Source: Candidatus Giovannonibacteria bacterium RIFCSPHIGHO2_01_FULL_45_24 (GTDB lineage: Bacteria; Patescibacteriota; Minisyncoccia; UBA11713; 2-01-FULL-45-33). From it: a stretch of 53,291 nt of DNA. Each line of letters begins with the position of its first letter. Position 1 is the stretch's first letter. The notes below the pieces were generated by a model. The model was not told the origin of the DNA. It saw nothing but the letters and a program-made list of their open reading frames with translations, and searched no databases. Below, in pieces: positions 5,313 through 31,520 of the stretch. Location of the stretch: assembly GCA_001778495.1 (NCBI GenBank), contig MFHE01000010.1:1-53291 (forward strand), written 5' to 3'. A program made the position numbers and the translations under genes.

Positions 5313-5967
5313 CATGTTTGCGCAAAATATCTTTAAAATAATATAATACTTTCCCGCTCTTTAAATCGTTTGTCGTAAAAATCTCAACGAAAGGATGGAT
5401 ATTAAATATATCGCACAAAAATTTAATTTCGTGCTCGCATGGAAAAGGGTGAACCCATACGCTTCTCTGAAGCGGATAGAATCCTAAATTTTTTAGCTGA
5501 TTCCATAATGCATACCTGGATTTTTTAAATTTTTCCGGGATGTCAAAAATTACAACTCGCCATTTTTTATCCCATTTTGCCGGAGATTTTATTTCCAATG
5601 TTTCAAGTAATAATGTTTTAGTCAGTGCGCGCCCCTTGTCAGTAAATCTATAAACCAATCCGCCATCCTTGCTTTCGCCTACACATTCAAACACATTGCG
5701 CTTTTTTAAAGCGTGAAATCTTGCCCAAAGTTTTTGATACCGCTCCTGTTTGTCTTTCTTGGCTCTAGCCAAACCCTTACCAGCAATGGCGGCAATACCA
5801 GGCGCTACAACGGCAACGGTAAGTACCCCACCTAAAATGGCCGTGGCAAACAATGCCTTAATTGTCGATGAAGCAATTGGATGTTTAGCAACAAATTCTT
5901 TTACGCGATCTTTAATTTCGTCCGATATTTTCGGATCAGCAAAGTAAATTGGCTTATGTTTTGGCAT
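5308..5967 (-). CDS. PaaX-like (Cas2-fold C-terminal domain) putative regulator with an N-terminal TM segment
   Basis: 219 aa. WRVVIFDIPEKFKKSRYALWNQLKNLGFYPLQRSVWVHP matches the recalled PaaX-type signature. Confidence 0.6.
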   Translation of the reverse strand: MPKHKPIYFADPKISDEIKDRVKEFVAKHPIASSTIKALFATAILGGVLTVAVVAPGIAAIAGKGLARAKKDKQERYQKLWARFHALKKRNVFECVGESKDGGLVYRFTDKGRALTKTLLLETLEIKSPAKWDKKWRVVIFDIPEKFKKSRYALWNQLKNLGFYPLQRSVWVHPFPCEHEIKFLCDIFNIHPFVEIFTTNDLKSGKVLYYFKDILRKHA

Positions 5968-5970
5968 AAT

Positions 5971-6018
5971 CTATATACTATCTTTAAACAACGATCGTTG
6001 TAAATACATAGTATAGAG
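5971..6018. promoter_or_regulatory. 48-bp imperfect palindrome with the same core CAACGATCGTTG (5989-6000), 4-51 nt upstream of the PaaX-like start
   Basis: Shares tatactatct-N5-caacgatcgttg exactly with the 5271 site. Minus strand gives TTTACA-18-TAGTAT, then 7 nt to the ATG. Confidence 0.6.
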
Positions 6019-6031
6019 CACGGTAAGAAAG

Positions 6032-6739
6032 TTATCCCCAGAGCAGGGTGTATGCCGCAACGACGGAGGCGGTTTCGGAGCGCAATGTCAGACGACCCAA
6101 GGATATAATTTCAAAATTTGCGCGCCCTGCGGCGAAAATTTCGCGCTCTTCCCAGCCGCCTTCCGGGCCAACAAAAAGATTCATCTGCCTGTCACCCGCG
6201 CCGCGCATCATATTTTCTTTCTCGGAAACTGCTGCAAAATAAGTTTTTGCTCCCGAGAGCCCCGCTTGACCTACCGCCCGCTCAAAAAAAACAACCGGAT
6301 GCAATTTTGGGATTACCGCCCGCCCCGACTGCTCCGCGGCTTCTTTTAAAATCGCGGCACACCGCTCCGTATTTAAGCTTTTCTTTTCGGATCTGGCGGA
6401 TATTACCGGCGCGATCTCCGAAACCCCAATTTCTGTGGCTTTCTCCAAAACCCATTCAAACTTATCTTTTTTAACCAGCGATTGGTATAGAATCAATTTC
6501 TTTGATGGTTCACGGGTGTTTTCAAGTTTTTCCCTAAGCATAAGAGCTGCGGAGCCGGCTTCAATATTTTTGAGCTCAAAGACAAAATCAAAGCCGAGAT
6601 ACTCCGGAGCGCCGCTGAAAAACACGGCTTGTTCTCCTTTTCGAATTTTTAAAACGTCTCTAATCTGGTGAATTACCGAGCGGTCTCTCACCACCAAAAT
6701 TTCTTTATTTAATTCTTGCGGCAGATAAAACCTGTGCAT
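6032..6739 (-). CDS. rsmE: 16S rRNA (uracil1498-N3)-methyltransferase
   Basis: 235 aa, MHRFYLP... N-terminus and C-terminal GPEGGW..E motif. Confidence 0.88.
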   Translation of the reverse strand: MHRFYLPQELNKEILVVRDRSVIHQIRDVLKIRKGEQAVFFSGAPEYLGFDFVFELKNIEAGSAALMLREKLENTREPSKKLILYQSLVKKDKFEWVLEKATEIGVSEIAPVISARSEKKSLNTERCAAILKEAAEQSGRAVIPKLHPVVFFERAVGQAGLSGAKTYFAAVSEKENMMRGAGDRQMNLFVGPEGGWEEREIFAAGRANFEIISLGRLTLRSETASVVAAYTLLWG

Positions 6740-7419
6740 TATTTCGTATCAATAATTATAGTAAATTCTCCTCTTTGGCGCTCGCCCGTGAAGTGTTTTT
6801 GGGCTTCGGATAATTTGCCCCTGAAAATTTCTTCGTGAAGCTTTGTCAGCTCCCTGCCGATGTTTACATATCTATCGCCATTGGCCACTTCCAGCTCACG
6901 CAGAGTTTTTTGTACGCGGTGGGGCGACTCAAAAATAATTACCGGCATATTTATCTTGGCAACACGCCCGAAAAATGTCTGCCGGCCTTTTTTGCGCGGA
7001 GGGAAACCCAAAAAAATAAAATTACTTAAATCGATGTCGCTGGCGGACACTATAGCTGAAAGCGCCGAGGGCCCCGGGATCGGTATCACGGAAGCCGAGC
7101 TTCCACTTGGAAGTTCGGCTTCCAAGTAAGCGATGAGTTTGCGGCCCGGGTCGGAAATGCCCGGAGTTCCTGCGTCAGTGACTAGCGCCAAATTTTTGTT
7201 TTCTTTGATTAAATTTAGAATTTTTTCTAAAATTTTTGGAGATGAATGCTCTCGAAAAGAAATCGTCGGCTTGGAAATCCCGAGATGCGCCAGCAATTTT
7301 CTGGTTACTCTTGTGTCTTCAGCTAAAACAACATCAACTGATTTTAACGTTTCTATCGCGCGGAGCGTGACGTCTTTTAAATTCCCGATGGGCGTGGCTA
7401 CGATAAAGAGCTTTGGCAT
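6739..7419 (-). CDS. rsmI: 16S rRNA 2'-O-ribose C1402 methyltransferase (tetrapyrrole-methylase fold)
   Basis: Track ORF 6739..7539 trimmed to MPKLFIVATPIGNLKDVTLRA (ATG at 7419). DAGTPGISDPG and PGPSA motifs present. Confidence 0.88.
   Translation of the reverse strand: MPKLFIVATPIGNLKDVTLRAIETLKSVDVVLAEDTRVTRKLLAHLGISKPTISFREHSSPKILEKILNLIKENKNLALVTDAGTPGISDPGRKLIAYLEAELPSGSSASVIPIPGPSALSAIVSASDIDLSNFIFLGFPPRKKGRQTFFGRVAKINMPVIIFESPHRVQKTLRELEVANGDRYVNIGRELTKLHEEIFRGKLSEAQKHFTGERQRGEFTIIIDTK
7090..7127. repeat. REP-like palindromic element, about 1.5 copies, in-frame inside rsmI
   Basis: GGAAGCCGAGCTTCC (7090-7104) plus ACTTGGAAG-TTCGG-CTTCCAAGT (7105-7127). Translated in rsmI as LEAELPSGSSAS. 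Confidence 0.8.
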
Positions 7420-7450
7420 AAAAACATAGTAAACAAAAAACGCGGGTTTG

Positions 7451-8299
7451 TTAAGCACCGCGTTCGCGGAAGTAGTTGTCGCTGTATTTCCAAAAGAGCT
7501 TCTGAAGTTTTGAGGTAAGGGTATCCGGCCCGACCTCAAACGCGCGATAGATGATTTGCTTTATAGGCGTGATACCGCGAGTAGTGGAGGTAAAAAATGC
7601 CTCCCGGCAAAGTTTCAGAAGATCAATGCCAATTTCATACTCGGAGACTCTTTTGAAAAGTTCCGACCGCTGCGCCAAATCCAGAACAATTTTGCGCGTC
7701 ACACCTGCAAGCGCCCTGTTATGAGTATATGGCGTGATCAACCAATCGTCGGTAGTAATAAAAAACACGTTCTCATACGGCCCTTCCAAAATTCCGTCTA
7801 TGTGGTCGTAATAAAGAAAACTATCGTATCCCATCCCCTGTATTCTTTGTATATTTCTGTTAACCGTCCCGTAGTCGCATGCCAGTTTCAAATTCGGAAC
7901 CTTGCGTCGCTCCACTACAGTCATCAGACGCAGAGGTTTGGATTCGCTCTCTGTGAGCGGCCTGACATCCAAGGAAAGCTTGGGCGAGCCCGAGGGAGTT
8001 TTCATGTCATCCGAGTCCCCCGGCGTGACGAGTATACGAACCACCGAACGGTCATTGCCGTCTTTTTTCAAAAGGCACTCCGCTTTCGCCTTTATCTCCT
8101 GCCCGGAAGGCAGTTTCTCCCGCGGAATATATCCGTCGCAGCCCGCCATCAGGCGGCTCCAATGGTCATACCAATGGAAGAGAACCGCGCCCCGAGCGGC
8201 TAAAACTTCTATGACTCCGTCCGCCCGTTGCAGCCCCAAGTCATTCTGCCAAGAAATTTTTTCCCGCCAATCCCCTTCGCACCAGATAAGATTCTGCAT
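7451..8299 (-). CDS. Class IV (branched-chain/D-amino-acid/ADC-lyase type) aminotransferase
   Basis: Track ORF trimmed to MQNLIW (ATG at 8299), preceded by AAGGAGG 5 nt upstream. Confidence 0.78.
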   Translation of the reverse strand: MQNLIWCEGDWREKISWQNDLGLQRADGVIEVLAARGAVLFHWYDHWSRLMAGCDGYIPREKLPSGQEIKAKAECLLKKDGNDRSVVRILVTPGDSDDMKTPSGSPKLSLDVRPLTESESKPLRLMTVVERRKVPNLKLACDYGTVNRNIQRIQGMGYDSFLYYDHIDGILEGPYENVFFITTDDWLITPYTHNRALAGVTRKIVLDLAQRSELFKRVSEYEIGIDLLKLCREAFFTSTTRGITPIKQIIYRAFEVGPDTLTSKLQKLFWKYSDNYFRERGA

Positions 8300-8362: not shown

Positions 8363-9043
8363 CTAGACCGGCGAGGTCGGGCAGATGTCCAAAAGATGAA
8401 TTTTAGATTTGGCTTTCTCGCGGTTTTGTCGGCTTCTCATTTCTCGATTAAAATCAATTATTTTGTAAGTTAGCCCGAACCAATCTTTTTTGGAAAACCA
8501 CTTCATTAAATCCTGCTCAATTTTTTTGGGGTCGTGCTCAAACGAAAGCGCGCAGTAATTGGCGAACTGGCGCACGTGCGTGTCCACCGCGATACCCTCA
8601 ACGACGCCGTAGACGTTGCCCAAAACAATGTTCGCGGTTTTGCGCGCGACTCCGCGGAGCTTCAGCATATCGGCCATAGTGCGCGGCAATTTTCCGCCAA
8701 AATCTTTTTTGATAATTTTAGCGGAAGTGATAACGCTTTTGGCCTTGGCGCGGTAAAATCCGGTTGATTTTATTTCCTGTTCAAATGTTTTTAAATTCGC
8801 GTTCGCGAAATCATCAACGCTTCTGTATTTCCTGAAAAGTTTTTCCGTCACTTCGTTTACTTTTTTATCCGTGCATTGAGCGGACAAAATCACCGCGACC
8901 AAAAGCTGGATATTGTTTCCGTATTTGAGAGCAATATTTGCTTTGGGATACGCCTTTCTTAAGCGCCTCAAAATCTCCGCCGCCCTTTTCTGGCGCGCTT
9001 CAAAACTCTCTTTTTTGGCATCCTCCATAGTAAAACTCCGCAT
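8363..9043 (-). CDS. nth: Endonuclease III-family HhH-GPD DNA glycosylase lacking the C-terminal Cys cluster
   Basis: LRGVARKTANIVLG (Lys) and AVDTHV (Asp) are present. No C-x6-C-x2-C-x5-C. Alternative start at 9028 (MEDAKK) has a GGAG upstream. Confidence 0.82.
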   Translation of the reverse strand: MRSFTMEDAKKESFEARQKRAAEILRRLRKAYPKANIALKYGNNIQLLVAVILSAQCTDKKVNEVTEKLFRKYRSVDDFANANLKTFEQEIKSTGFYRAKAKSVITSAKIIKKDFGGKLPRTMADMLKLRGVARKTANIVLGNVYGVVEGIAVDTHVRQFANYCALSFEHDPKKIEQDLMKWFSKKDWFGLTYKIIDFNREMRSRQNREKAKSKIHLLDICPTSPV

Positions 9044-9084
9044 TAGACATATTTTAAGCTAAATTTGTTTAATTAAAATAGTGC

Positions 9085-9113
9085 TTGACAAAAATTTAAA
9101 ATTATGCTAGCTT
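9085..9113 (+). promoter_or_regulatory. Promoter: TTGACA - 17 nt (ending TGC) - TAGCTT
   Basis: TTGACA 9085-9090 and TAGCTT 9108-9113. AGGAGG SD follows at 9121-9126. Confidence 0.55.
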
Positions 9114-9131
9114 CGCATCAGGAGGTGTGAA

Positions 9132-9875
9132 ATGAAGAAAACCGCATCGGTTCTGATAGCACTTTTATTGCTGATTGGTTCTGTTGCTTCGGCTGCGGAG
9201 GCCGGAGATTTTGAGACATCTATCAATTTTACTTGGTATTCGCAGTATGTCGGGGGTGGTGGGTTTCGGCCGCACAAGCATCCCGTCCTGCAGGAAGAGG
9301 CCCTGGTTCGACACTTGCCGACCGGGTACTACGCCGGCATCTGGCTCTCGCAGAGTCCGAACGGCAGAATCGATTTTGGCGAGGAGGAAAACTACTATTT
9401 CGGTAAGGTTTTCCGCATCCATAAAGTAGAGTTTGACCTCCAAGCCAATTTTATAGAGGTCTCCAAGCTCGGCGATCTGATCGATTTCACCGTGCGAATT
9501 TCCGCGCCGGAGGTGACGCCCTTATATTGGAAAACCGAATACCTCGTTGGGACCTCCAAAAGAAGCCCGGAGGGCGGGTTTTTCCATAAACTGGGCGCCG
9601 CAAAGACATATTCCCTACCGTTCGGATTCCACGAGCAACCCGTGGTTCTTGACGCTTTCATTGGCGCCACTAATGGCGCCGTGGGAATAAACCATGGCAT
9701 AACCCATACTGCCGTAAGCGCTGCGTTCCCGATTGAGCTTGGGAAGGGCATATCCCTGACCCCGAAGTTCACTTACCAGTACACATTCGGGGGATTCAAT
9801 GATGGGAAAGCCGGACACCTCAACAACCAGCCCCATATGAAGTGGGGCGGGGTAACTCTAACATACCGTTTTTGA
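9132..9875 (+). CDS. Secreted protein with outer-membrane beta-barrel-like features
   Basis: Signal peptide MKKTASVLIALLLLIGSVASA, alternating hydrophobic pattern, C-terminal ...GVTLTYRF. Confidence 0.6.
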   Translation: MKKTASVLIALLLLIGSVASAAEAGDFETSINFTWYSQYVGGGGFRPHKHPVLQEEALVRHLPTGYYAGIWLSQSPNGRIDFGEEENYYFGKVFRIHKVEFDLQANFIEVSKLGDLIDFTVRISAPEVTPLYWKTEYLVGTSKRSPEGGFFHKLGAAKTYSLPFGFHEQPVVLDAFIGATNGAVGINHGITHTAVSAAFPIELGKGISLTPKFTYQYTFGGFNDGKAGHLNNQPHMKWGGVTLTYRF

Positions 9876-16884: not shown

Positions 16885-19536
16885 TTATTTCTTCTCTAAA
16901 TTTTTGCGGTGCTCCCCCGTTCCTAACAAGCCACAACGTTTATACTTCTTTCCAGAACCGCACCAGCAGGGGTCATTGCGGCCCAGTTCGTCCTTTTTGT
17001 CAAAAGTTGAACTTCTGACATTTTGTTTAAATTCATTCGCAGGAGCGGGGCCGATTTTAAAAATCAAATTAGCGATGTAGGCGTTGATATGCCCTTCCAG
17101 CTGCTGGAACATTTTTGCGCCCTCGTTTTTGTATTCTACCAAAGCAACCCTTTGGCCGTAAACGCGAAGTTGTACGCTGGAACGCATGTATTCCATCGCC
17201 TCCAGATGCTCCATCCAAAGAGCGTCAATCGCCTGGAGCATGATTACGCGAAGCGCGTCGGCAAACCCCGCAACCTCCTTTTTTTGCTTGACGAATGCCG
17301 TTTCAATTTCTTTCTCCGCGAGCTCGGCCAGCTCTTCCATGCTTTCCATTTTCCCAACTCGCTCGCGGATATTAGAGAAATCTCCGCCGCCCAAAATGCT
17401 CGCCAAATTCTCCCCAATCTCTTTTTTGTTCCATTCTTCCGGCGAGCCCATGGTGTGTGCCTGGATAATCCTGCTCGCCACTTCTTTAAGCAAAGCCAAC
17501 GCCTCCTCCTCTATTTCTTCGGGCTTCGCGAAAAGCAGTTTTTTTCTCCGTGAATAAATCGCCGCCCTCTGCTTATTCATCACGTCGTCATACTCCAAAA
17601 CATGCTTTCTAGTGTCAAAGTTAAATCCCTCAATTTTCCCCTGCGCGGACTCAATCGCCCCCGACACCATTTTGTTTTCCACTGGCTCGTCTTCCGGAAT
17701 GCCGAGCTTGCCCATTAAATTTTTCACCCTCTCCGGCGCGAAAATTCGCATAAGGTCATCCTCCAAAGAAACAAAAAATTGCGTCCCGCCCGGGTCGCCC
17801 TGCCTGCCGGCTCTGCCCCGAAGCTGGTCGTCTATGCGGCGCGCTTCGTGCCGCTCCGTGCCGATGACAAGCAATCCGCCCACACTCCTGACTCTCTCGG
17901 CGTCTTCGGAAACCGCCGGGTTTCCTCCGAGAATTATGTCCACTCCCCGGCCGGCCATGTTGGTCGCGACGGTCACGGCCCTGAATCTCCCCGCCTGCGC
18001 GATAATCGCTCCTTCCTCCTCGTGATTTTTAGCGTTCAGCACTTTGTGTTCTACGCCTTCGCGCGAGAGGAGCGCGGAAAGTTTTTCATTTTTTTCAATT
18101 GAAACAGTGCCAATAAGCACGGGCTGGCCTTTTTCGTTTCTTGCTTTTATTTCGCGCGAGAGAGCTTGCCATTTCCCTTTTTCCGTCTGGAAAACTTTGT
18201 CCGGCAAATCGTTTCTTACCATGGGCTTATTCGTCGGGATCTCGGTGACATCCAAATTATATACTTTGTGGAATTCCTCGGCGGAAGTTTGCGCCGTGCC
18301 CGTCATCCCGGCCAGCTTTTTATACATCCTGAAATAATTTTGGAAAGTAATTGTCGCAAGCGTGCGGGATTCCTGCTGGACCCGCGCGCCTTCTTTGGCC
18401 TCAATGGCCTGGTGGAGCCCGTCCGACCACCTTCGCCCGGGCATCAAGCGACCGGTAAATTCATCAACAATGGTTACTTCCCCATTTTTTACGACATAAT
18501 CTTTGTCGCGCTGAAAAAGAGCGTGGGCGCGAAGCGCCTGCTCCAGATGATGCACATATCTCATCCCGCGCTCGGTGTAGATGTCTTTAAGCCCGAGCAT
18601 CTGCTCCACTTTTTCAATTCCGGATTCGGTCACGAGCGCCGTTTTCATTTTCTCATCAATATTATAATCCTCGTTTTCTTTAAGCCGCAGGACGATTCTT
18701 GAAAAAACTTTGTAAAGCTCGGCGGATTCGGCATCAGGAGTTGAGATAATCAACGGCGTCCGCGCTTCATCAATTAAAATTGAATCAACCTCGTCAACAA
18801 TCGCGAAATTGTGGCCGCGCTGGGCCATCTGGCTCGGAGCGTAAACCATATTGTCGCGCAGATAATCAAACCCGTACTCGTTGTTCGTCCCATAAGTGAC
18901 GTCGGCGGCGTATGCTTCGCGCCGGGGGCAGGGACGCAAAAATTCGTGAACAACTTTAAAAGCGCCCAATGTGTCGCGGGCTTGGTCTTTGGCGGTTAAA
19001 CCGCCATTTGGCGGTTTAACCGCCAAGTTCGCATCATATAAGTAACTTGCTTCATGATTCAAAACCCCCACGGATAACCCCAGCGCATTATATATCTGCC
19101 CCATCCAAACGGCGTCCCTCCGCGACAGATAGTCGTTGACCGTCACAATATGAACGCCTCCACCAGCTGGCGGGGCCGGAAGCGCGTTGATATAAGCCGG
19201 CAAAGTCGCAACTAAAGTTTTCCCTTCTCCGGTCTTCATCTCCGCGATTCCTCCTCTGTGGAGCACAATCCCGCCCATAAGCTGGGCGTCAAAATGCCTC
19301 TGGCCCAAAGTTCTTTTGGCGGCATCTCTTACGACGGCAAATGCTTCGGGAAGAATTTCATCAAGCCACGCGCCGTCCTCCAACCGTTTTCTGAATTCCG
19401 CTGTTTTATTTTTTAGTTCCTCATCAGAAAGTTTTTGGACTCCATTTTCCAGATTGTTTATTTCTTCAACAATCGGCCGGAGCTCGTCTACGGCTCTTTC
19501 ATTTGAGCCCCCAAAAATTTTCCCAAAAAATGACAT
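16885..19536 (-). CDS. secA: Preprotein translocase ATPase SecA
   Basis: 883 aa. MKTGEGKTLV Walker A, VDEVDSILIDEARTPLIIS DEAD-like motif, C-terminal zinc motif CWCGSGKKYKRC. Confidence 0.98.
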   Translation of the reverse strand: MSFFGKIFGGSNERAVDELRPIVEEINNLENGVQKLSDEELKNKTAEFRKRLEDGAWLDEILPEAFAVVRDAAKRTLGQRHFDAQLMGGIVLHRGGIAEMKTGEGKTLVATLPAYINALPAPPAGGGVHIVTVNDYLSRRDAVWMGQIYNALGLSVGVLNHEASYLYDANLAVKPPNGGLTAKDQARDTLGAFKVVHEFLRPCPRREAYAADVTYGTNNEYGFDYLRDNMVYAPSQMAQRGHNFAIVDEVDSILIDEARTPLIISTPDAESAELYKVFSRIVLRLKENEDYNIDEKMKTALVTESGIEKVEQMLGLKDIYTERGMRYVHHLEQALRAHALFQRDKDYVVKNGEVTIVDEFTGRLMPGRRWSDGLHQAIEAKEGARVQQESRTLATITFQNYFRMYKKLAGMTGTAQTSAEEFHKVYNLDVTEIPTNKPMVRNDLPDKVFQTEKGKWQALSREIKARNEKGQPVLIGTVSIEKNEKLSALLSREGVEHKVLNAKNHEEEGAIIAQAGRFRAVTVATNMAGRGVDIILGGNPAVSEDAERVRSVGGLLVIGTERHEARRIDDQLRGRAGRQGDPGGTQFFVSLEDDLMRIFAPERVKNLMGKLGIPEDEPVENKMVSGAIESAQGKIEGFNFDTRKHVLEYDDVMNKQRAAIYSRRKKLLFAKPEEIEEEALALLKEVASRIIQAHTMGSPEEWNKKEIGENLASILGGGDFSNIRERVGKMESMEELAELAEKEIETAFVKQKKEVAGFADALRVIMLQAIDALWMEHLEAMEYMRSSVQLRVYGQRVALVEYKNEGAKMFQQLEGHINAYIANLIFKIGPAPANEFKQNVRSSTFDKKDELGRNDPCWCGSGKKYKRCGLLGTGEHRKNLEKK
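18989..19026. repeat. 38-bp nested palindrome inside secA
   Basis: ttggcggttaaaccgcca-tt-tggcggtttaaccgccaa gives 18 perfect mirror pairs. Each half also contains GGCGG-N5-CCGCC. Translated as LAVKPPNGGLTAK. Confidence 0.85.
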
Positions 19537-20786: not shown

Positions 20787-21794
20787 TTATTTATCCACAA
20801 AGCGGCTGTAGTAGCCCCTGTCCGCTTTAAGCGCCTCGCGGCCGGTGTATTGGTACTTAAATCCATAGTTTGTAATTTTTGAGCCGTCAACGATAATCGG
20901 GTAAGTGTAAGAATTGATGCCCGCCGGGACCGTTGGAATCCTCCCCCGCGAAAGGTGCCACAGCGCGCCGAAACAGAGTTTCCCCAGCCGCATCGGCACT
21001 CTTATTGAGAGCTTGCCGATTTCTTTCGCCATATCTTTCAGCAAAAAGAAGTCGGCTGGGGCGATGTTGAATATCTCGTATTTTGAAGATGCACCTCCGC
21101 CGGCCATAAACCGGACGGCATCCCAAATATCGTCTTCGTGAACAAACTGCCTCGCGGAATCCGGCCCGGTGACGGGCACAACCGGGAGGCCGAATTTCAT
21201 CGCACGCAGAAGCCCGAAGCGCTTGAACGCAAACTGACCCCGTGGACCCGTGATGGCGCAGGGGCGGAACACCAAAACCTGCGTCGCGGAAAACGCATAA
21301 AACGCGGCTTTTAGTTTTTCTTCAATTATTTTCTTATCCACGCCGTAAAGATACTTCTCCTCGCGGAAAGAGTCTGATTCTTTGAATTTATAGTTCGTGG
21401 AATTCTCGGGAAGCGCGCCATAAGAAGCAACGGTTGAAAAATGTATGAGCCGCGGTATTTTGTTTTTTGAAACAAAATCAAAAACCCTCTCCGCCGCCGT
21501 AACATTAGATTTTATCTGCCATGCCCTTTTTTTGCCGTAGCCCTCGCGGATGACATAAGCGCAGTGTATCACCAAATCCGGCCTGCCCTCGGCCAAAACT
21601 TTTTCTTCCCAGCCGGGGTCGCCAAGATTGTGCTGTACAAAAGCAATCCGATTGCTACTTAGCAATCGGATTGCTAAGTTGGATGGAGCCTTCATATCCA
21701 AAGCGATTATTTTTTCAACTTCCGGATTTTCATCAAAGCGGTCAGCGAGCATCCCGCCTATGTATCCCGACGTTCCGGTTATAAAAATTTTCAT
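20787..21794 (-). CDS. NAD-dependent epimerase/dehydratase (SDR) family protein
   Basis: 335 aa with MKIFITGTSGYIGG Rossmann motif. Confidence 0.85.
   Translation of the reverse strand: MKIFITGTSGYIGGMLADRFDENPEVEKIIALDMKAPSNLAIRLLSSNRIAFVQHNLGDPGWEEKVLAEGRPDLVIHCAYVIREGYGKKRAWQIKSNVTAAERVFDFVSKNKIPRLIHFSTVASYGALPENSTNYKFKESDSFREEKYLYGVDKKIIEEKLKAAFYAFSATQVLVFRPCAITGPRGQFAFKRFGLLRAMKFGLPVVPVTGPDSARQFVHEDDIWDAVRFMAGGGASSKYEIFNIAPADFFLLKDMAKEIGKLSIRVPMRLGKLCFGALWHLSRGRIPTVPAGINSYTYPIIVDGSKITNYGFKYQYTGREALKADRGYYSRFVDK
20791..20799 (+). promoter_or_regulatory. Perfect DnaA-box 9-mer (TTATCCACA on plus strand) within the last codons of the epimerase gene
   Basis: Read directly from the sequence. 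Confidence 0.3.
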
Positions 21795-25682: not shown

Positions 25683-26525
25683 TTACTTGCAAGAGCCGGC
25701 CTCAACCTGCAAAACCGTTGTGTTAAAGTTATTTAACGTTGTCGTGCCGACATAAAGTCTAAATACAGTGCCATCTGTTGACCGCACAAGCTCAATACAA
25801 CTACCCTTTTTTGTTCCGCTAGTATCTAGATATAAGGTTGTGGTAGCGGCACTAGTGGCGGATAATTCAGCCGCCGGAGTAGATGTCCCGCCCGCGCCGA
25901 TGAATCCTTGTGTCGCGAATTGGCCGGAGGACCCCGTAGTTGTAGCCGTGCCGGACACCATAAGAGAGTTGGCTCCGGTTGAAATAGAAATGCCGGATGA
26001 GGAAGCAAAACCGAGAGTAGTGAGACCGGTCACTCCTAAAGTGCTGCTTAGGGTAGTTGCGCCTGTTACCGCAAGCGTGCCGGTAGCAGTGATATTGGAA
26101 ACATTCACCAAAGCGCCGGAAATGTAAGCGCTGCCCTGAACCGCCAAACTATTTCCAACCAAAGCAAAGGGAGTGGAAGTTGAAACTCCCAAAGTGCTGC
26201 CCGTAGTTATGGCTCCGGTCAATGTTGAGGCGCCTGTGACTGAAAGCGTTCCTGTTGCGGTGATATTGGAAACATTCATCAAATTGCCTGCGATATAAAC
26301 ATTGCCCTGGACTGAAATCATGGCGGTGTCAGACGGCGTGGAAGACGCGACCGCAACGGCTCCCGTAAGAGTGGACGCGCCGGAAACCGTGAGCGTCCCT
26401 CCGGTGTTTACATTAGTGCTAATAGTGGTTGCGGAATAAACAATCCCCGCGACCATTAGTACAGAAACAAGTCCAGACGCCGCCACGGTGATGGACTGTT
26501 TCTTTGAGAGAAGAAAATTCTTCAT
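25683..26525 (-). CDS. Secreted/anchored Thr-Gly-Ser-rich repeat protein with a C-terminal Cys pair
   Basis: N-terminal TM. 57-aa tandem repeat (NVSNITATGTL.VTGA.TL...). C-terminus GSCIEL...EAGSCK. Confidence 0.7.
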   Translation of the reverse strand: MKNFLLSKKQSITVAASGLVSVLMVAGIVYSATTISTNVNTGGTLTVSGASTLTGAVAVASSTPSDTAMISVQGNVYIAGNLMNVSNITATGTLSVTGASTLTGAITTGSTLGVSTSTPFALVGNSLAVQGSAYISGALVNVSNITATGTLAVTGATTLSSTLGVTGLTTLGFASSSGISISTGANSLMVSGTATTTGSSGQFATQGFIGAGGTSTPAAELSATSAATTTLYLDTSGTKKGSCIELVRSTDGTVFRLYVGTTTLNNFNTTVLQVEAGSCK

Positions 26526-28881: not shown

Positions 28882-29049
28882 GGTTTAAATAATAACAAAA
28901 GCAAAACCCAAGGCAAGGGAAAAGAAAAAGGCCCGGGGTTGAGAGATTCGTCGCGTAGTTAGTCCGTCTGTCCAGCTTGGATCTGGTTTTTCTGTTTTTG
29001 CTGGCTCCTCGATTTTTGTCAAGCGCGCGTGGTAATGCTCTGCCCGGCA

Positions 29050-29076
29050 GCACTTGGAAGCCGGACTTCCAAGTGC
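29050..29076 (+). repeat. REP-like perfect hairpin, left flank
   Basis: GCACTTGGAAG-CCGGA-CTTCCAAGTGC: 11-bp arms and a 5-nt loop. Confidence 0.9.
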
Positions 29077-29088
29077 TAATATGGCAAT

Positions 29089-29733
29089 ATGAGAAAAGAA
29101 GTATTTGCCGTTGGCAAATTTTATCATATCTACAACCGCGGGACTGATAAGCGAAAGATTTTCCTAGATAAATACGACTTTGAGCGATTCCTGCAAAGCA
29201 TGCAAGAATTTAATACGCTAGAACCAATAGGTAGTATTTATGAAAATTCTTTCGTAAAAGATCAACTTGGGAGTTCGGCTTCCAAGCAACGCAAATTAGT
29301 AAATTGCGTGGCTTATTGCCTTAATCCAAATCACTATCATTTTATTCTTCAGCAAACCAAAGAAAGAGGCGTAGAAAAATTTATGCAAAGACTCGGCACT
29401 GGTTTTACAAACTATTTTAATAATAAATACCACCGCAGTGGAGTATTGTTTCAGGGCAAATTTAAATCTCGCCATATTGACTCCAATGAGTATCTTTTAC
29501 ATATAAGCGCTTATGTAAATTTAAACGACCGCATCCACCGATTTGGGAGTTCGGCTTCCAAGTCGAGTTGGATAGAGTATGTAGAAAAACAAAAAGGGAT
29601 TTGTGAGAAAAAAATAATCCTAGATCAATTTGGAAACGTTGCGGAGTATAAAGCTTTTGCGGAAAGCTCGCTCAAAGACATATTGGCACGCAAACAACTT
29701 TACAAAGAGCTGGAAATATTACTGTTTGATTAA
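29089..29733 (+). CDS. HUH/Y1 single-strand DNA transposase, IS200-like / REP-associated (RAYT-like)
   Basis: 214 aa. N-terminal FYHIYNRG, HUH motif NPNHYHFIL, C-terminal Tyr region (EYLLHISAYVNLN). Confidence 0.78.
   Translation: MRKEVFAVGKFYHIYNRGTDKRKIFLDKYDFERFLQSMQEFNTLEPIGSIYENSFVKDQLGSSASKQRKLVNCVAYCLNPNHYHFILQQTKERGVEKFMQRLGTGFTNYFNNKYHRSGVLFQGKFKSRHIDSNEYLLHISAYVNLNDRIHRFGSSASKSSWIEYVEKQKGICEKKIILDQFGNVAEYKAFAESSLKDILARKQLYKELEILLFD
29266..29286 (+). repeat. REP-like hairpin copy inside the transposase ORF (internal copy 1)
   Basis: CTTGGGAG-TTCGG-CTTCCAAG, translated as LGSSASK. Confidence 0.85.
29543..29563 (+). repeat. REP-like hairpin copy inside the transposase ORF (internal copy 2)
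   Basis: TTGGGAG-TTCGG-CTTCCAAGT; 29542-29562 matches copy 1 at 20 of 21 positions. Translated as FGSSASK. Confidence 0.85.
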
Positions 29734-29772
29734 CTTGGAAGCCGGACTTCCAAGTGCATCTTCCAAGTGCAT
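29733..29772 (+). repeat. REP-like hairpin, right flank, plus a 13-nt tandem duplication
   Basis: ACTTGGAAG-CCGGA-CTTCCAAGTGC (29733-29757) starts in the TAA stop codon. CTTCCAAGTGCAT occurs twice (29747-29759, 29760-29772). Confidence 0.9.
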
Positions 29773-31520
29773 TATAGTTCGTATTCTATGACAATCGTAT
29801 CGTTTTGCTTCGGATGAAAGACACGAGTTTTTTTGCCGAGTCCCATCCCAACCCACGCAAGACAGCGGGGAGGCCGCTTAACCCCCACTTGATCGCGGAC
29901 GGAAACTGTATCTTCTCCGAACGTGTATTTTCTTTTCAAAATAAAATCGTCGCGCCGTTCTCCGTCGCGCGCCGCCGGCGCTACTTTGTAGGATGCCTCG
30001 CGCGGAGAAACGTCGGCGGTCACTTCCCCGCTCCACTCCGTGGAAATCAGAGGCGAAAACGCAGACAAAATGCGCCTTAAAAAATGCCCCGCGAAGAGAT
30101 GCCAAAACGCCCGAATATTTCCGGCGCGAAGTTCAACAAGCATGTAAAACACATGGCTTTTCAGTTCTTGCCGCTCATTTCTAAGAATCCTCAACGCGCG
30201 CCTAACTCGCATCAAAAACGAATGTGACAGCGGCACAGCCACCCAGCTGCCGTAGCCCATGCCGCTTTCTACCTCCCCATGGCGCGCGGGGAGTTGATTG
30301 GCGAATCCTTGCGATTTTTTGCCAAAATAAAGTATATTGCCTCCGCCGTATCCGGAGCCCCAGCTCATTGTCGGCGCGGACGTTTTCCCGCGCAGAGTTA
30401 CAAGATATGATGGCTTCCCAACGCGCAGAATGTCGGCGTTGGGGAAGTAAGCGTATTCGTCTTGCGGCATATTTGTTTTTTGCGGAACAAGATTCCGCAC
30501 GCGCGCAAGCCAGGCAACTTGGCAGGTCCAGAAAATTTTACATTGAAAATTTTCTCCGGTCTTGGAAGCGGTAATCCAGCCTCCCTCTTTCTGCTCACTC
30601 TCCAAGCGCTCCCACATAAGCCGCGCGTATTGCGTTGCTAATTCATCTCCGGCGCGTTCGCCCCACGCCAAAAGAGCGTAGAGGTCAAAAGAATAGCTGG
30701 CCACTTCGTAGAAAGAGTGCCAATACCAGCGTTTTGTTTCCGCCCGGATGCTTTTTAGCCCGTCTCTGCCGATTAGCGCGATCAGCGCCCGAATCCCCTT
30801 GCTTAAATTTGCTTCGTGCGAGCGCCAATCAACTCCAAGCCGGTCAAGAGAATATAATATAAAACCGATGTGCCGGGAATGATAAAAAGAAGTGATGTCG
30901 CGCGCGGAGCCCGGCATGCACGACTTCTCCGGAGAAGGATGGTACGAAAAAAACCCGTCCGCCAACTGCTCCCGAAAAGCGCGCTCAATTCCTTTTAAAA
31001 CGGCGTCTTTCCATTTTTTTTCATGAAATAAAGCGTAGGCGGCGGCGAGCCCGGTCCCCGCCCACAATCTCTGGTTGGTAATCGGCTTTTCTGACGCCGC
31101 TTCCGCAAGATAACTGGAAGAAACTTTCCATACGGCGTCGCGATATTTTTTTATTGTTTCCTCCGAAAGGCCGCTCTCTGGATGAAGCAGAAGAGAGGAA
31201 AGCGCGTCAATTCCGGAGCCCGCGTCCAAACTTGAATTGGACATATTGTATCTTGAGTAATTTCCGGGCCACACTATCCAATATTTTCCCGAGGGGTCCG
31301 GTTTTATTTTAGAATACACGAACTCCGCGTAGAGCTTCGCGCGTTCCAAATATTCAGCTCCCCCGGTCGCGTCAAAAAGCTCCAAATTCAATATCGCCGC
31401 GTAGGCGATTTTTCCGGTATGTTCAACTCTGTGTTTCGCGCAAAAAATATTTCCGTTCCTCTCCGAAGCGCCCAAAAGCGCGCCGGACGCTTTTTTAAGA
31501 AATTCCAGAGGGGCGTCCAT
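29772..31520 (-). CDS. Hypothetical protein, possibly (alpha/alpha)-toroid polysaccharide lyase/epimerase-like
   Basis: 582 aa with a helical-repeat N-terminal half. Assignment is weak. Confidence 0.5.
   Translation of the reverse strand: MDAPLEFLKKASGALLGASERNGNIFCAKHRVEHTGKIAYAAILNLELFDATGGAEYLERAKLYAEFVYSKIKPDPSGKYWIVWPGNYSRYNMSNSSLDAGSGIDALSSLLLHPESGLSEETIKKYRDAVWKVSSSYLAEAASEKPITNQRLWAGTGLAAAYALFHEKKWKDAVLKGIERAFREQLADGFFSYHPSPEKSCMPGSARDITSFYHSRHIGFILYSLDRLGVDWRSHEANLSKGIRALIALIGRDGLKSIRAETKRWYWHSFYEVASYSFDLYALLAWGERAGDELATQYARLMWERLESEQKEGGWITASKTGENFQCKIFWTCQVAWLARVRNLVPQKTNMPQDEYAYFPNADILRVGKPSYLVTLRGKTSAPTMSWGSGYGGGNILYFGKKSQGFANQLPARHGEVESGMGYGSWVAVPLSHSFLMRVRRALRILRNERQELKSHVFYMLVELRAGNIRAFWHLFAGHFLRRILSAFSPLISTEWSGEVTADVSPREASYKVAPAARDGERRDDFILKRKYTFGEDTVSVRDQVGVKRPPRCLAWVGMGLGKKTRVFHPKQNDTIVIEYEL

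Follow-up and report, generated by a model that had tools for sequence, protein, structure and literature searches.

A Y1 HUH transposase-like gene with two flanking and two in-frame hairpins in Candidatus Giovannonibacteria: probably a REPtron-type unit

What kind of element is a small transposase-like gene that bears copies of one hairpin just before its start codon, on its stop codon and twice inside its own coding sequence? The question is raised by a locus in contig MFHE01000010.1 of Candidatus Giovannonibacteria, of which a 53-kb stretch (53,291 nt) was analysed; this stretch is called the window below, and coordinates refer to it. The unit formed by the gene and its hairpins is probably of the REPtron type, that is, a domesticated or semi-autonomous Y1 HUH nuclease for single-stranded DNA (ssDNA) together with cognate palindromes that resemble repetitive extragenic palindromes (REPs). 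Direct support for this answer comes from the Pfam membership, the fold and the catalytic residues of the protein, from the layout of four hairpins, their covariation, the gene-specific hairpin variants and the matching copies dispersed in the genome, and also from the vertical inheritance of the gene with purifying selection and from one site that is free of it. The parts of the unit in the window are as follows:

29050–29076, plus strand: upstream hairpin (U), GCACTTGGAAG-CCGGA-CTTCCAAGTGC, ending 12 nt 5′ of the ATG.
29089–29733, plus strand: Y1 HUH transposase-like gene, 214 aa, making up with the hairpins a unit of about 720 bp.
29266–29286, plus strand: first internal hairpin (I1), CTTGGGAGT-tcg-GCTTCCAAG, codons 60–66, in frame, peptide LGSSASK.
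29542–29562, plus strand: second internal hairpin (I2), TTTGGGAGT-tcg-GCTTCCAAG, codons 152–158, in frame, peptide FGSSASK.
29733–29757, plus strand: downstream hairpin (D), ACTTGGAAG-CCGGA-CTTCCAAGTGC, its right arm also given as CTTCCAAGT(GC).
29747–29759 and 29760–29772, plus strand: 13-nt tandem duplication, CTTCCAAGTGCAT ×2, consisting of the right arm of D and 2 nt of flank.

For U, D, the open reading frame (ORF) and the duplication, the coordinates and sequences of the preliminary description of this DNA proved correct to the base. Its remark that the gene is the only one on the plus strand for several kb agrees with the ORF list, in which the 214-aa ORF is the sole long plus-strand ORF from about 26.6 to 34.4 kb and the neighbouring long ORFs all lie on the minus strand. 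What it overlooked is the pair of in-frame hairpin copies inside the ORF. The stem of U grows to 12 bp when it is taken over 29049–29077, and folded as ssDNA this hairpin gives −13.5 kcal/mol (z = −7.5); the first base of D is the last A of the TAA stop codon (29731–29733), and the stem of I2 reaches over 29539–29565. When reverse-complemented, I1 and I2 match the flanking hairpin except at 2 or 3 bases, the loop being inverted relative to U and D. When the 21-mer core was searched with up to 3 mismatches, 7 matches were found at 5 distinct sites of the window and none in 100 shuffles; a chance origin of the repeated hairpin in the window is excluded.

First of all, the protein is of the type that had been proposed from its motifs. 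The Pfam family Y1_Tnp (PF01797) scores 28.3 bits over residues 67–144 (E = 2.1e-6), where 23 bits are needed to pass the gathering score, and the same annotation is present in precomputed form for most homologues. The hallmark residues named in the preliminary description are real: the protein contains YHIYNRG, the HUH motif N81-H82-Y83-H84, LFQG and the predicted catalytic Tyr142 within YVNLN, and H82, H84 and Y142 are invariant across 118 homologues. In an AlphaFold2 model (pLDDT 82, pTM 0.82), the HUH motif is located on strand 82–89 and the Tyr on helix 133–144. The top Foldseek match of the model in PDB is 4er8_A, the E. coli TnpA-REP bound to a REP hairpin (E = 8e-6, probability 1.00); next come the TnpA structures of IS608, ISDra2 and IS200, each with a probability of 0.98 or more. 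That is to say, the Pfam score, the conserved HUH with a single Tyr and the TnpA fold all place the protein in the Y1 HUH superfamily. In addition, the pLDDT of the model drops below 50 only at residues 58–66, which form the I1 peptide, and the I2 peptide also falls in a low-confidence stretch. Because of this low pLDDT, both hairpin-encoded peptides look as if they were placed in permissive loops, one before the HUH strands and the other after the Tyr helix.

The gene is a member of a large family. The homologues number more than 3,700 and are annotated at their sources as transposases or 'RayT', with Giovannonibacteria, Moranbacteria, Portnoybacteria and other Patescibacteria as hosts. A library of 1.84 billion representatives yields 260 clusters at E ≤ 1e-30 and 4,276 when the threshold is relaxed to E ≤ 1e-10. 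In contigs taken from one genome per species, 519 loci encode a relative; the best 80 of the 519 all come from metagenome bins of the Candidate Phyla Radiation (CPR), and several bins among these 80 loci hold 3–5 copies of the gene. Wherever the host of the clade is identified, it is a CPR/Patescibacteria genome.

The family hairpins were analysed in 80 related loci (1.23 Mb), with 76 genes scored for layout, and they return to the same four positions: U 10–40 nt upstream, I1 at codons ~57–62, I2 at codons ~146–157, and D on or just past the stop codon. All four are present in 31 of the 76 genes (U12D), while 14 lack I1 (U-2D), 13 lack I2 (U1-D) and 5 lack both (U--D); counted one by one, U is found at about 68 genes, I1 at 51, I2 at 56 and D at about 67. 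Each hairpin is built in the same way, from a foot (C)ACTTGG, 4 variable bp, a 3-nt loop, the 4 complementary bp and CCAAGT(G), and the foot ACTTGG/CCAAGT is common to all hairpins in these loci. A perfect inner stem is found at 266 of the 395 foot-motif sites in the 1.23 Mb, compared with about 1.5 expected, and the stems are about 97% Watson–Crick paired overall (242 hairpins). Moreover, paralogues of 29–37% identity also bear a hairpin at the U or I1 position, with a different foot. Two of them, both at 35–37% identity, may serve as illustrations: the gene at 6393–7055 of locus L070 has the foot TGTCAAAC with hairpins upstream and at the I1 position, and the gene at 8758–9444 of locus L005 has the foot TGATGGAAGT with a hairpin at the I1 position only.

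While the foot is shared, the inner 4 bp and the loop are constant within a gene and differ between genes and paralogues, the inner stem being identical in 89–96% of within-gene comparisons versus 28% between genes. The variable inner stem and loop therewith appear to act as a label, which is shared by the hairpins of a gene and their copies in the same genome and differs between paralogues.

Is it then the peptide or the palindrome that is kept inside the gene? In the family protein alignment, the two internal peptides differ between proteins and co-vary within each protein, for example LGHRVSK/LGHRVSK, LGGQASK/LGGQASK and LRGSTSK/LRGSTSK. In the I2 alignment, which contains 54 hairpins from one coding position, 90.6% of the cells are paired, and 98 cells show double-sided (compensatory) changes versus 34.5 ± 4.5 in shuffles, none of 500 shuffles reaching 98; each of the four inner pairs shows the four standard pair types. 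Because compensatory changes are so strong inside the coding sequence at I2, it is the palindrome that is selected, as nucleic acid, and the peptides are by-products. A chance or codon-driven origin of the internal repeats was also considered and was rejected, as LG-x-x-x-SK co-varies within a protein and the DNA keeps its Watson–Crick pairing by double-sided changes.

The hairpins are also found at a distance from the gene. The dispersed sites of the window are the following:

7090–7127, minus strand: rsmI doublet, GGAAGCCGAGCTTCC + ACTTGGAAGTTCGGCTTCCAAGT, in frame in the rsmI ORF 6739–7539, encoding YLEAELPSGSSAS.
18987–19028, minus strand: secA doublet, variant GGCGGT/tta, in frame in the secA ORF 16885–19536, encoding NLAVKPPNGGLTAK.
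21642–21679, minus strand: epimerase doublet, a third variant, AGCAAT/ccg, in frame in the ORF 20787–21794 of a NAD-dependent epimerase, encoding NLAIRLLSSNRIA.

The rsmI doublet is composed of a full hairpin (7105–7127) and an adjoining inner half-copy (7090–7104) with the loop flipped; it is of the same variant as the hairpins of the transposase gene and folds at −15.6 kcal/mol (z = −5.4). The rsmI gene (16S rRNA methyltransferase RsmI) of the closest complete genome, CP066687, has no hairpin at this site. The site is a hotspot, at which other lineages bear different hairpin variants or inserts of 40–50 residues at the same protein position. The secA doublet folds at −22 kcal/mol (z = −9.7) and is presumably cognate to a Y1 paralogue located outside the window.

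Beyond the genes, the related loci contain 47 perfect hairpins, of which 22 lie within open frames that run for 120 codons or more. In stem and loop, 26 of the 47 agree exactly with a gene-linked hairpin of the same bin, as against 1.7% for other bins. The density of hairpins is about 100 times higher at Y1 genes (~240 in ~61 kb versus 47 in ~1.17 Mb). In metagenome contigs, the variant of the window has 87 exact matches on 76 contigs, 12 of them beside a Y1 gene and 75 elsewhere; many of the matching contigs come from groundwater samples of Hainich and Rifle. Of these 75, 65 fall in frames that run for 120 codons or more without a stop, often as doublets, and the 'repetitive extragenic palindrome' of these genomes is thus mostly intragenic. 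The preliminary description suggested counting the hairpin across the genome, and the hairpin does recur, both in the window and in public contigs. The central proposal of that description, a Y1/HUH transposase of the RAYT/IS200 type with a cognate hairpin substrate, is supported by the Pfam match, the fold, this recurrence and the 80 loci, and it withstands all the refuting checks named there.

Two further sets of intragenic hairpins were seen. In the five metagenome contigs L096, L104, L111, L140 and L160, the same GGAAG hairpin is located at the same ORF position, the hand-translated flank (..LEILRLEAELPSGVMHFFTG..) being TatD-like, which points to an old insertion or a recurrent one. In L033 (5678, 7834), ORFs of 721 and 739 aa share a hairpin at the same motif (ENHHFGGETSK..), and a third ORF, of 1123 aa, contains a related hairpin.

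Could the unit simply be an autonomous insertion sequence (IS) of the IS200 type, with U and D as its left and right ends, the 720-bp unit moving by ssDNA 'peel and paste', and the dispersed hairpins as solo ends? A compact unit with a hairpin tight on each end of the ORF, the membership in Y1_Tnp, the presence of IS608 and IS200 TnpA among the fold matches and the occurrence of several copies per genome would all agree with this, and as in IS200/IS605 elements (IS200, IS608, ISDra2) a Y1 HUH TnpA gene of small size has hairpins close to its ends and no terminal inverted repeats. The inheritance of the gene speaks for something else. Three genomes, CP066687.1 (651 kb), MFHO01 and MFHD01, have the gene at the same site, with the 582-aa gene's orthologue next to it. 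The transposase gene is 93%, 87% and 87% identical there, and the identity of the neighbouring gene (86% in CP066687.1, 79% in MFHD01) is lower. U is kept at the orthologous loci L081, L001 and L089, and D is identical in L081 and L001. In the more distant CAYXFX01 (locus L091; neighbour 61% identical), the 580-aa gene is followed by 46 nt and then by the Wzy_C gene, without Y1 gene and without hairpin; such adjacency of the neighbours would also suit an IS. Since the unit is syntenic in three genomes and the gene-free site occurs only in a more distant relative, it appears to be an old, vertically inherited resident under purifying selection, not a recent insertion, and would have been gained or lost deeper in the tree. 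The earlier statement that the gene is inserted in the glycan locus has this gene-free site in its favour; the shared synteny, and a gene more conserved than its neighbour, tell against it.

The comparison of copies leads in the same direction. The genomes used are metagenome bins, in which identical gene copies may be collapsed, so that copy-identity figures may miss identical repeats. Between paralogues of one bin, identity does not exceed 78% and is mostly near 60%, each paralogue having its own hairpin variant, whereas the copies of IS200 in a genome share about 99% (PMC6006769, Table 1). Near-identical copies with insertion polymorphism, by which an IS is recognised, were not seen: the top within-bin identity is 78% and the site is shared by three genomes, with the reservation that bins may hide identical repeats. 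A low copy number, divergent copies each with its own REP family and mostly vertical descent, which characterise a RAYT, were found in these metagenome bins, and so were flanking cognate palindromes that are also dispersed in the same genome, as in a REPtron. Furthermore, the top fold match is TnpA-REP and not an IS TnpA; the protein has 214 aa with a C-terminal extension, whereas IS200 TnpA has a core only, of about 150 aa; the hairpins are perfect and symmetrical and, across the family, seem to be near random in orientation instead of bound to one strand; and no relatives of the protein were found on viral contigs. We therefore regard an IS200-type element as unlikely.

The 13-nt duplication at the right end of the unit is missing in the two closest relatives, L081 and L001, and is therefore a recent event private to this genome or strain. 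The stop codon of the convergent 582-aa gene (29772–29774) directly abuts the end of the duplication; without the duplication, D would be 2–3 nt from both convergent stop codons.

How are the hairpins of one gene kept alike? Among the pairs of same-stem hairpins within a gene, 95 have identical loops, 86 have loops that are reverse complements of each other, and 22 have different loops. By these counts, the loop sequence is homogenised and the loop orientation is close to random. Likewise, the loops of U and D have the same orientation in 22 genes of the family and are flipped in 21. The preliminary description was right that the flanking hairpins of the window have the same orientation, but this has no special meaning when the loop orientation in the family is near random. 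Moreover, stems often run on into unique sequence, whether flank or coding region, and reach up to 26 bp; the arms of L077 U, L072 U, L056 D and L014 D, for example, stretch 13–26 bp into unique sequence. In many genes, extra codons LVK at I2 are the reverse complement of the conserved VHQ codons, and this arm extension looks like templated palindrome growth. The dispersed sites show a modest excess of stem extensions.

At the orthologous epimerase site (L081 position ~1650–1690), four arms and both loops have changed together between CP066687 (GGCAAC/tcg) and the window (AGCAAT/ccg), with flanks about 95% identical. Alleles with and without a hairpin were compared for rsmI (window versus CP066687), for L119 versus L157, and for L138 and L103 versus L164. 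Here the hairpin segment substitutes for an unrelated sequence of other length and is not added: in L119 (~2000–2070), a 59-nt doublet segment stands in place of an unrelated 29 nt of L157 (~5965–5999), the flanks being about 97% identical. No clean junction or target motif was readable in the three comparisons. Such replacement is unlike the seamless 'peel and paste' of IS608. The identities of the N-terminal, core and C-terminal segments between pairs of proteins correlate at r = 0.08–0.18, and as nearly all pairs are about 60% identical, this comparison has no power for module shuffling.

The hairpins could in principle be kept alike without the enzyme, by local gene conversion, self-correction of palindromes or template switching in replication, the Y1 protein having some other role in the processing of ssDNA and being no more than a favoured place for the hairpins. 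The concerted change of four arms and two loops at the epimerase site, the loops flipped about as often as not, the arms that grow into unique flank with stems of up to 26 bp, and the substitution of local sequence by hairpins would all be expected of such upkeep. It fits poorly with the roughly hundredfold density of hairpins at Y1 genes and with invariant catalytic residues. In addition, copies that lie kilobases away or on other contigs carry the exact variant of a Y1 gene in the same genome, and for this reason local conversion cannot explain the distant copies. Enzyme-independent upkeep is thus considered quite improbable.

A third possibility is that the hairpins act mainly in RNA, with one hairpin in the 5′ UTR, two roadblocks to translation and, at the 3′ end, a stabiliser or terminator, which together keep the expression of the transposase low. 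It is known that IS200 is repressed by an mRNA hairpin, which offers a precedent; U ends 12 nt short of the start codon and D overlaps the stop codon, between convergent genes, and on the sense strand I1 and I2 of the window would not stay paired without G:T(U) wobbles. In the internal hairpins of the family (I1 and I2 together), however, G:T is no commoner than A:C among the non-Watson–Crick pairs (18 versus 19), the loop orientation is random relative to the gene, and the same hairpins occur between genes as well as in unrelated genes, on either strand. D has no T-run terminator, and the hairpins have no Rfam match. A role in RNA only was rejected, as the 242 hairpins show no sense-strand G:T excess, no Rfam match and, at D, no terminator-like tail; even as the main function, a role in RNA seems very unlikely.

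The REPtron reading itself is best judged against the known systems. The E. coli REPtron (TnpA-REP/RAYT with REP/BIME, PDB 4ER8) has the same Y1 HUH fold and is the best structural match here; there too, cognate palindromes flank a low-copy, vertically inherited gene and palindrome copies are dispersed in the genome, and several gene/palindrome pairs can coexist in one genome (PMC6006769). The clade described here differs in that it has no GT[AG]G tag, a symmetrical ACTTGG foot and perfect stems without bulges, too little sequence similarity for the curated RAYT model or a PDB profile search, and a Tyr motif YVNLN without 'NP'; its palindrome copies are mostly intragenic and number tens per genome instead of hundreds.

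A closer parallel for the hairpins inside the gene is subclass 2.4 of Cyanobacteria and Bacteroidetes, in which in-frame REPs within tnpA-REP and 'double-foot' REPs have been described (Quentin, Siguier, Chandler, Fichant 2018, PMC6006769). The principle of in-frame REPs within transposase genes is therefore already known. In both cases the REPs of the transposase gene are in frame and in peripheral loops, and a tag with its reverse complement is present at both feet. The differences are as follows: the motifs of subclass 2.4 are NH[IFV]H, WQ and YIxNNP, versus NHYH, FQ (LFQG) and YVNLN here (PMC6006769); of the inserts here, one precedes the HuH, falling between helix B and strand 2, and the other follows the Tyr helix; the foot sequence and the host phyla are other ones; and the two sites are conserved in the clade, one being used even in paralogues of 29–37% identity. 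With different motifs and insert positions, the protein falls outside subclass 2.4. NHYH, LFQG and YVNLN match none of the 12 tabulated TnpA-Y1 subclasses, the nearest by motif being 2.1 (PMC6006769).

As for the dispersed copies, intragenic REPs have been catalogued and Rickettsia palindromic elements (RPEs) noted by Di Nocera et al. 2013 (PMC3733652). Those are likewise short palindromes in frame in the genes of functional proteins, often dimers, with the same gene site hit in different lineages; here, by contrast, the element is 21–39 nt long and tied to a specific transposase paralogue, and 65 of 75 sampled copies are intragenic. In summary, what differs from the known systems is the clade and its host phylum, the ACTTGG foot, two conserved sites outside the HuH-to-Y interval, the design of a constant foot with a variable label, several labels per small genome, and the mostly intragenic spread. 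No description of this clade, as RAYT or IS200 in CPR/Patescibacteria, was found in the literature searched, and its absence is limited to that literature.

In the mechanism proposed for the REPtron-type unit, the enzyme would bind the folded hairpin in ssDNA, for example on the lagging-strand template, nick it at the conserved foot by means of Tyr142 and the HUH-bound metal, and then rejoin the DNA; through such nicking and rejoining, hairpins would be copied, moved, replaced or flipped. We propose that a transposase works best near its site of synthesis, so that the hairpins in and beside the gene would be constantly renewed and stay identical. Selection would retain the copies that preserve the frame, as inserts of 7–13 residues at places where loops of the transposase and of host proteins (rsmI, secA, epimerase) tolerate them. 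From the family and the fold we infer that the enzyme binds, where it cuts and on which strand, how copies are made and that it prefers to act in cis.

Several points weigh against this reading. The canonical 5′ GT[AG]G tag of REPs is not present, the foot being (C)ACTTGG with its complement on the other side, and the Tyr motif (Y142-V-N-L-N146, then D/N-R) contains no Pro and so departs from the class-2 pattern Y---NP. The RAYT profile, suggested as a check in the preliminary description, does give a match, but a weak one: the NCBI curated RAYT equivalog NF047646 scores 33.7 bits with a cut-off of 80. By sequence, the protein is thus best described as a member of a RAYT-like clade and not as a curated RAYT. 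A profile of the 118 homologues finds no solved relative among the PDB sequences, so it is the fold comparison alone that ties the protein to TnpA-REP, and what the clade does as an enzyme is argued from homology. Scattered copies in the same genome are few, about three dispersed sites in the 53-kb window, unlike the hundreds of classical REP-rich genomes. In the alleles compared above, the hairpins replace sequence and are not added to it. The homogenisation of four palindromes so close together could be due to enzyme-free local gene conversion. Finally, some recent transposition of the gene may have escaped notice, as the bins may have collapsed identical copies.

A bolder reading goes beyond the REPtron type and has perhaps a minor chance of being right: the in-frame hairpins could be working cis-sites that are nicked in the enzyme's own gene, and the clade could be the engine of intragenic palindromes throughout the Patescibacteria. 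If the hairpins were such cis-sites, there would be flip-flop inversion and palindrome growth by nick-and-copy, like the resolution of parvovirus hairpin termini by the HUH Rep; a self-limiting or autoregulatory circuit would be possible, and gene and substrate would be re-labelled together whenever a new hairpin variant arises. If the clade were the engine, tiny genomes would have the surface loops of their essential proteins (SecA, RsmI, TatD-like) rewritten by these elements.

Few kinds of mobile DNA are maintained by vertical descent, and REP/RAYT systems belong to them. For the question of how RAYTs spread REPs, the clade is an unusually readable case, having a constant foot, a 4-bp label written four times per gene, and several gene/label pairs in genomes of about 0.65 Mb. 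With this design, specificity, turnover and flipping become legible from the comparison of sequences and can be tested with short oligonucleotides. The palindromes of these compact candidate-phyla genomes live mostly in genes, where they add 7–13 residues to loops of essential proteins, and this matters for annotation, for phylogenies built on alignments and for the question of where the lineage-specific protein inserts of these organisms come from.

Some minor observations remain. A connection with phages or defence was considered and rejected: the protein has no PHROG match, no PADLOC match and no relatives among the IMG/VR viral contigs. No sigma-70-type promoter was found 5′ of the gene on the plus strand, with a model that is not informative for these organisms. 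On the minus strand, a 280-aa ORF (25683–26525) adjoining the Wzy_C-TPR gene consists of low-complexity repeats rich in T/S/G/A (..TGTLSVTGASTLTGA..), and its product may be a surface or pilin-like protein.

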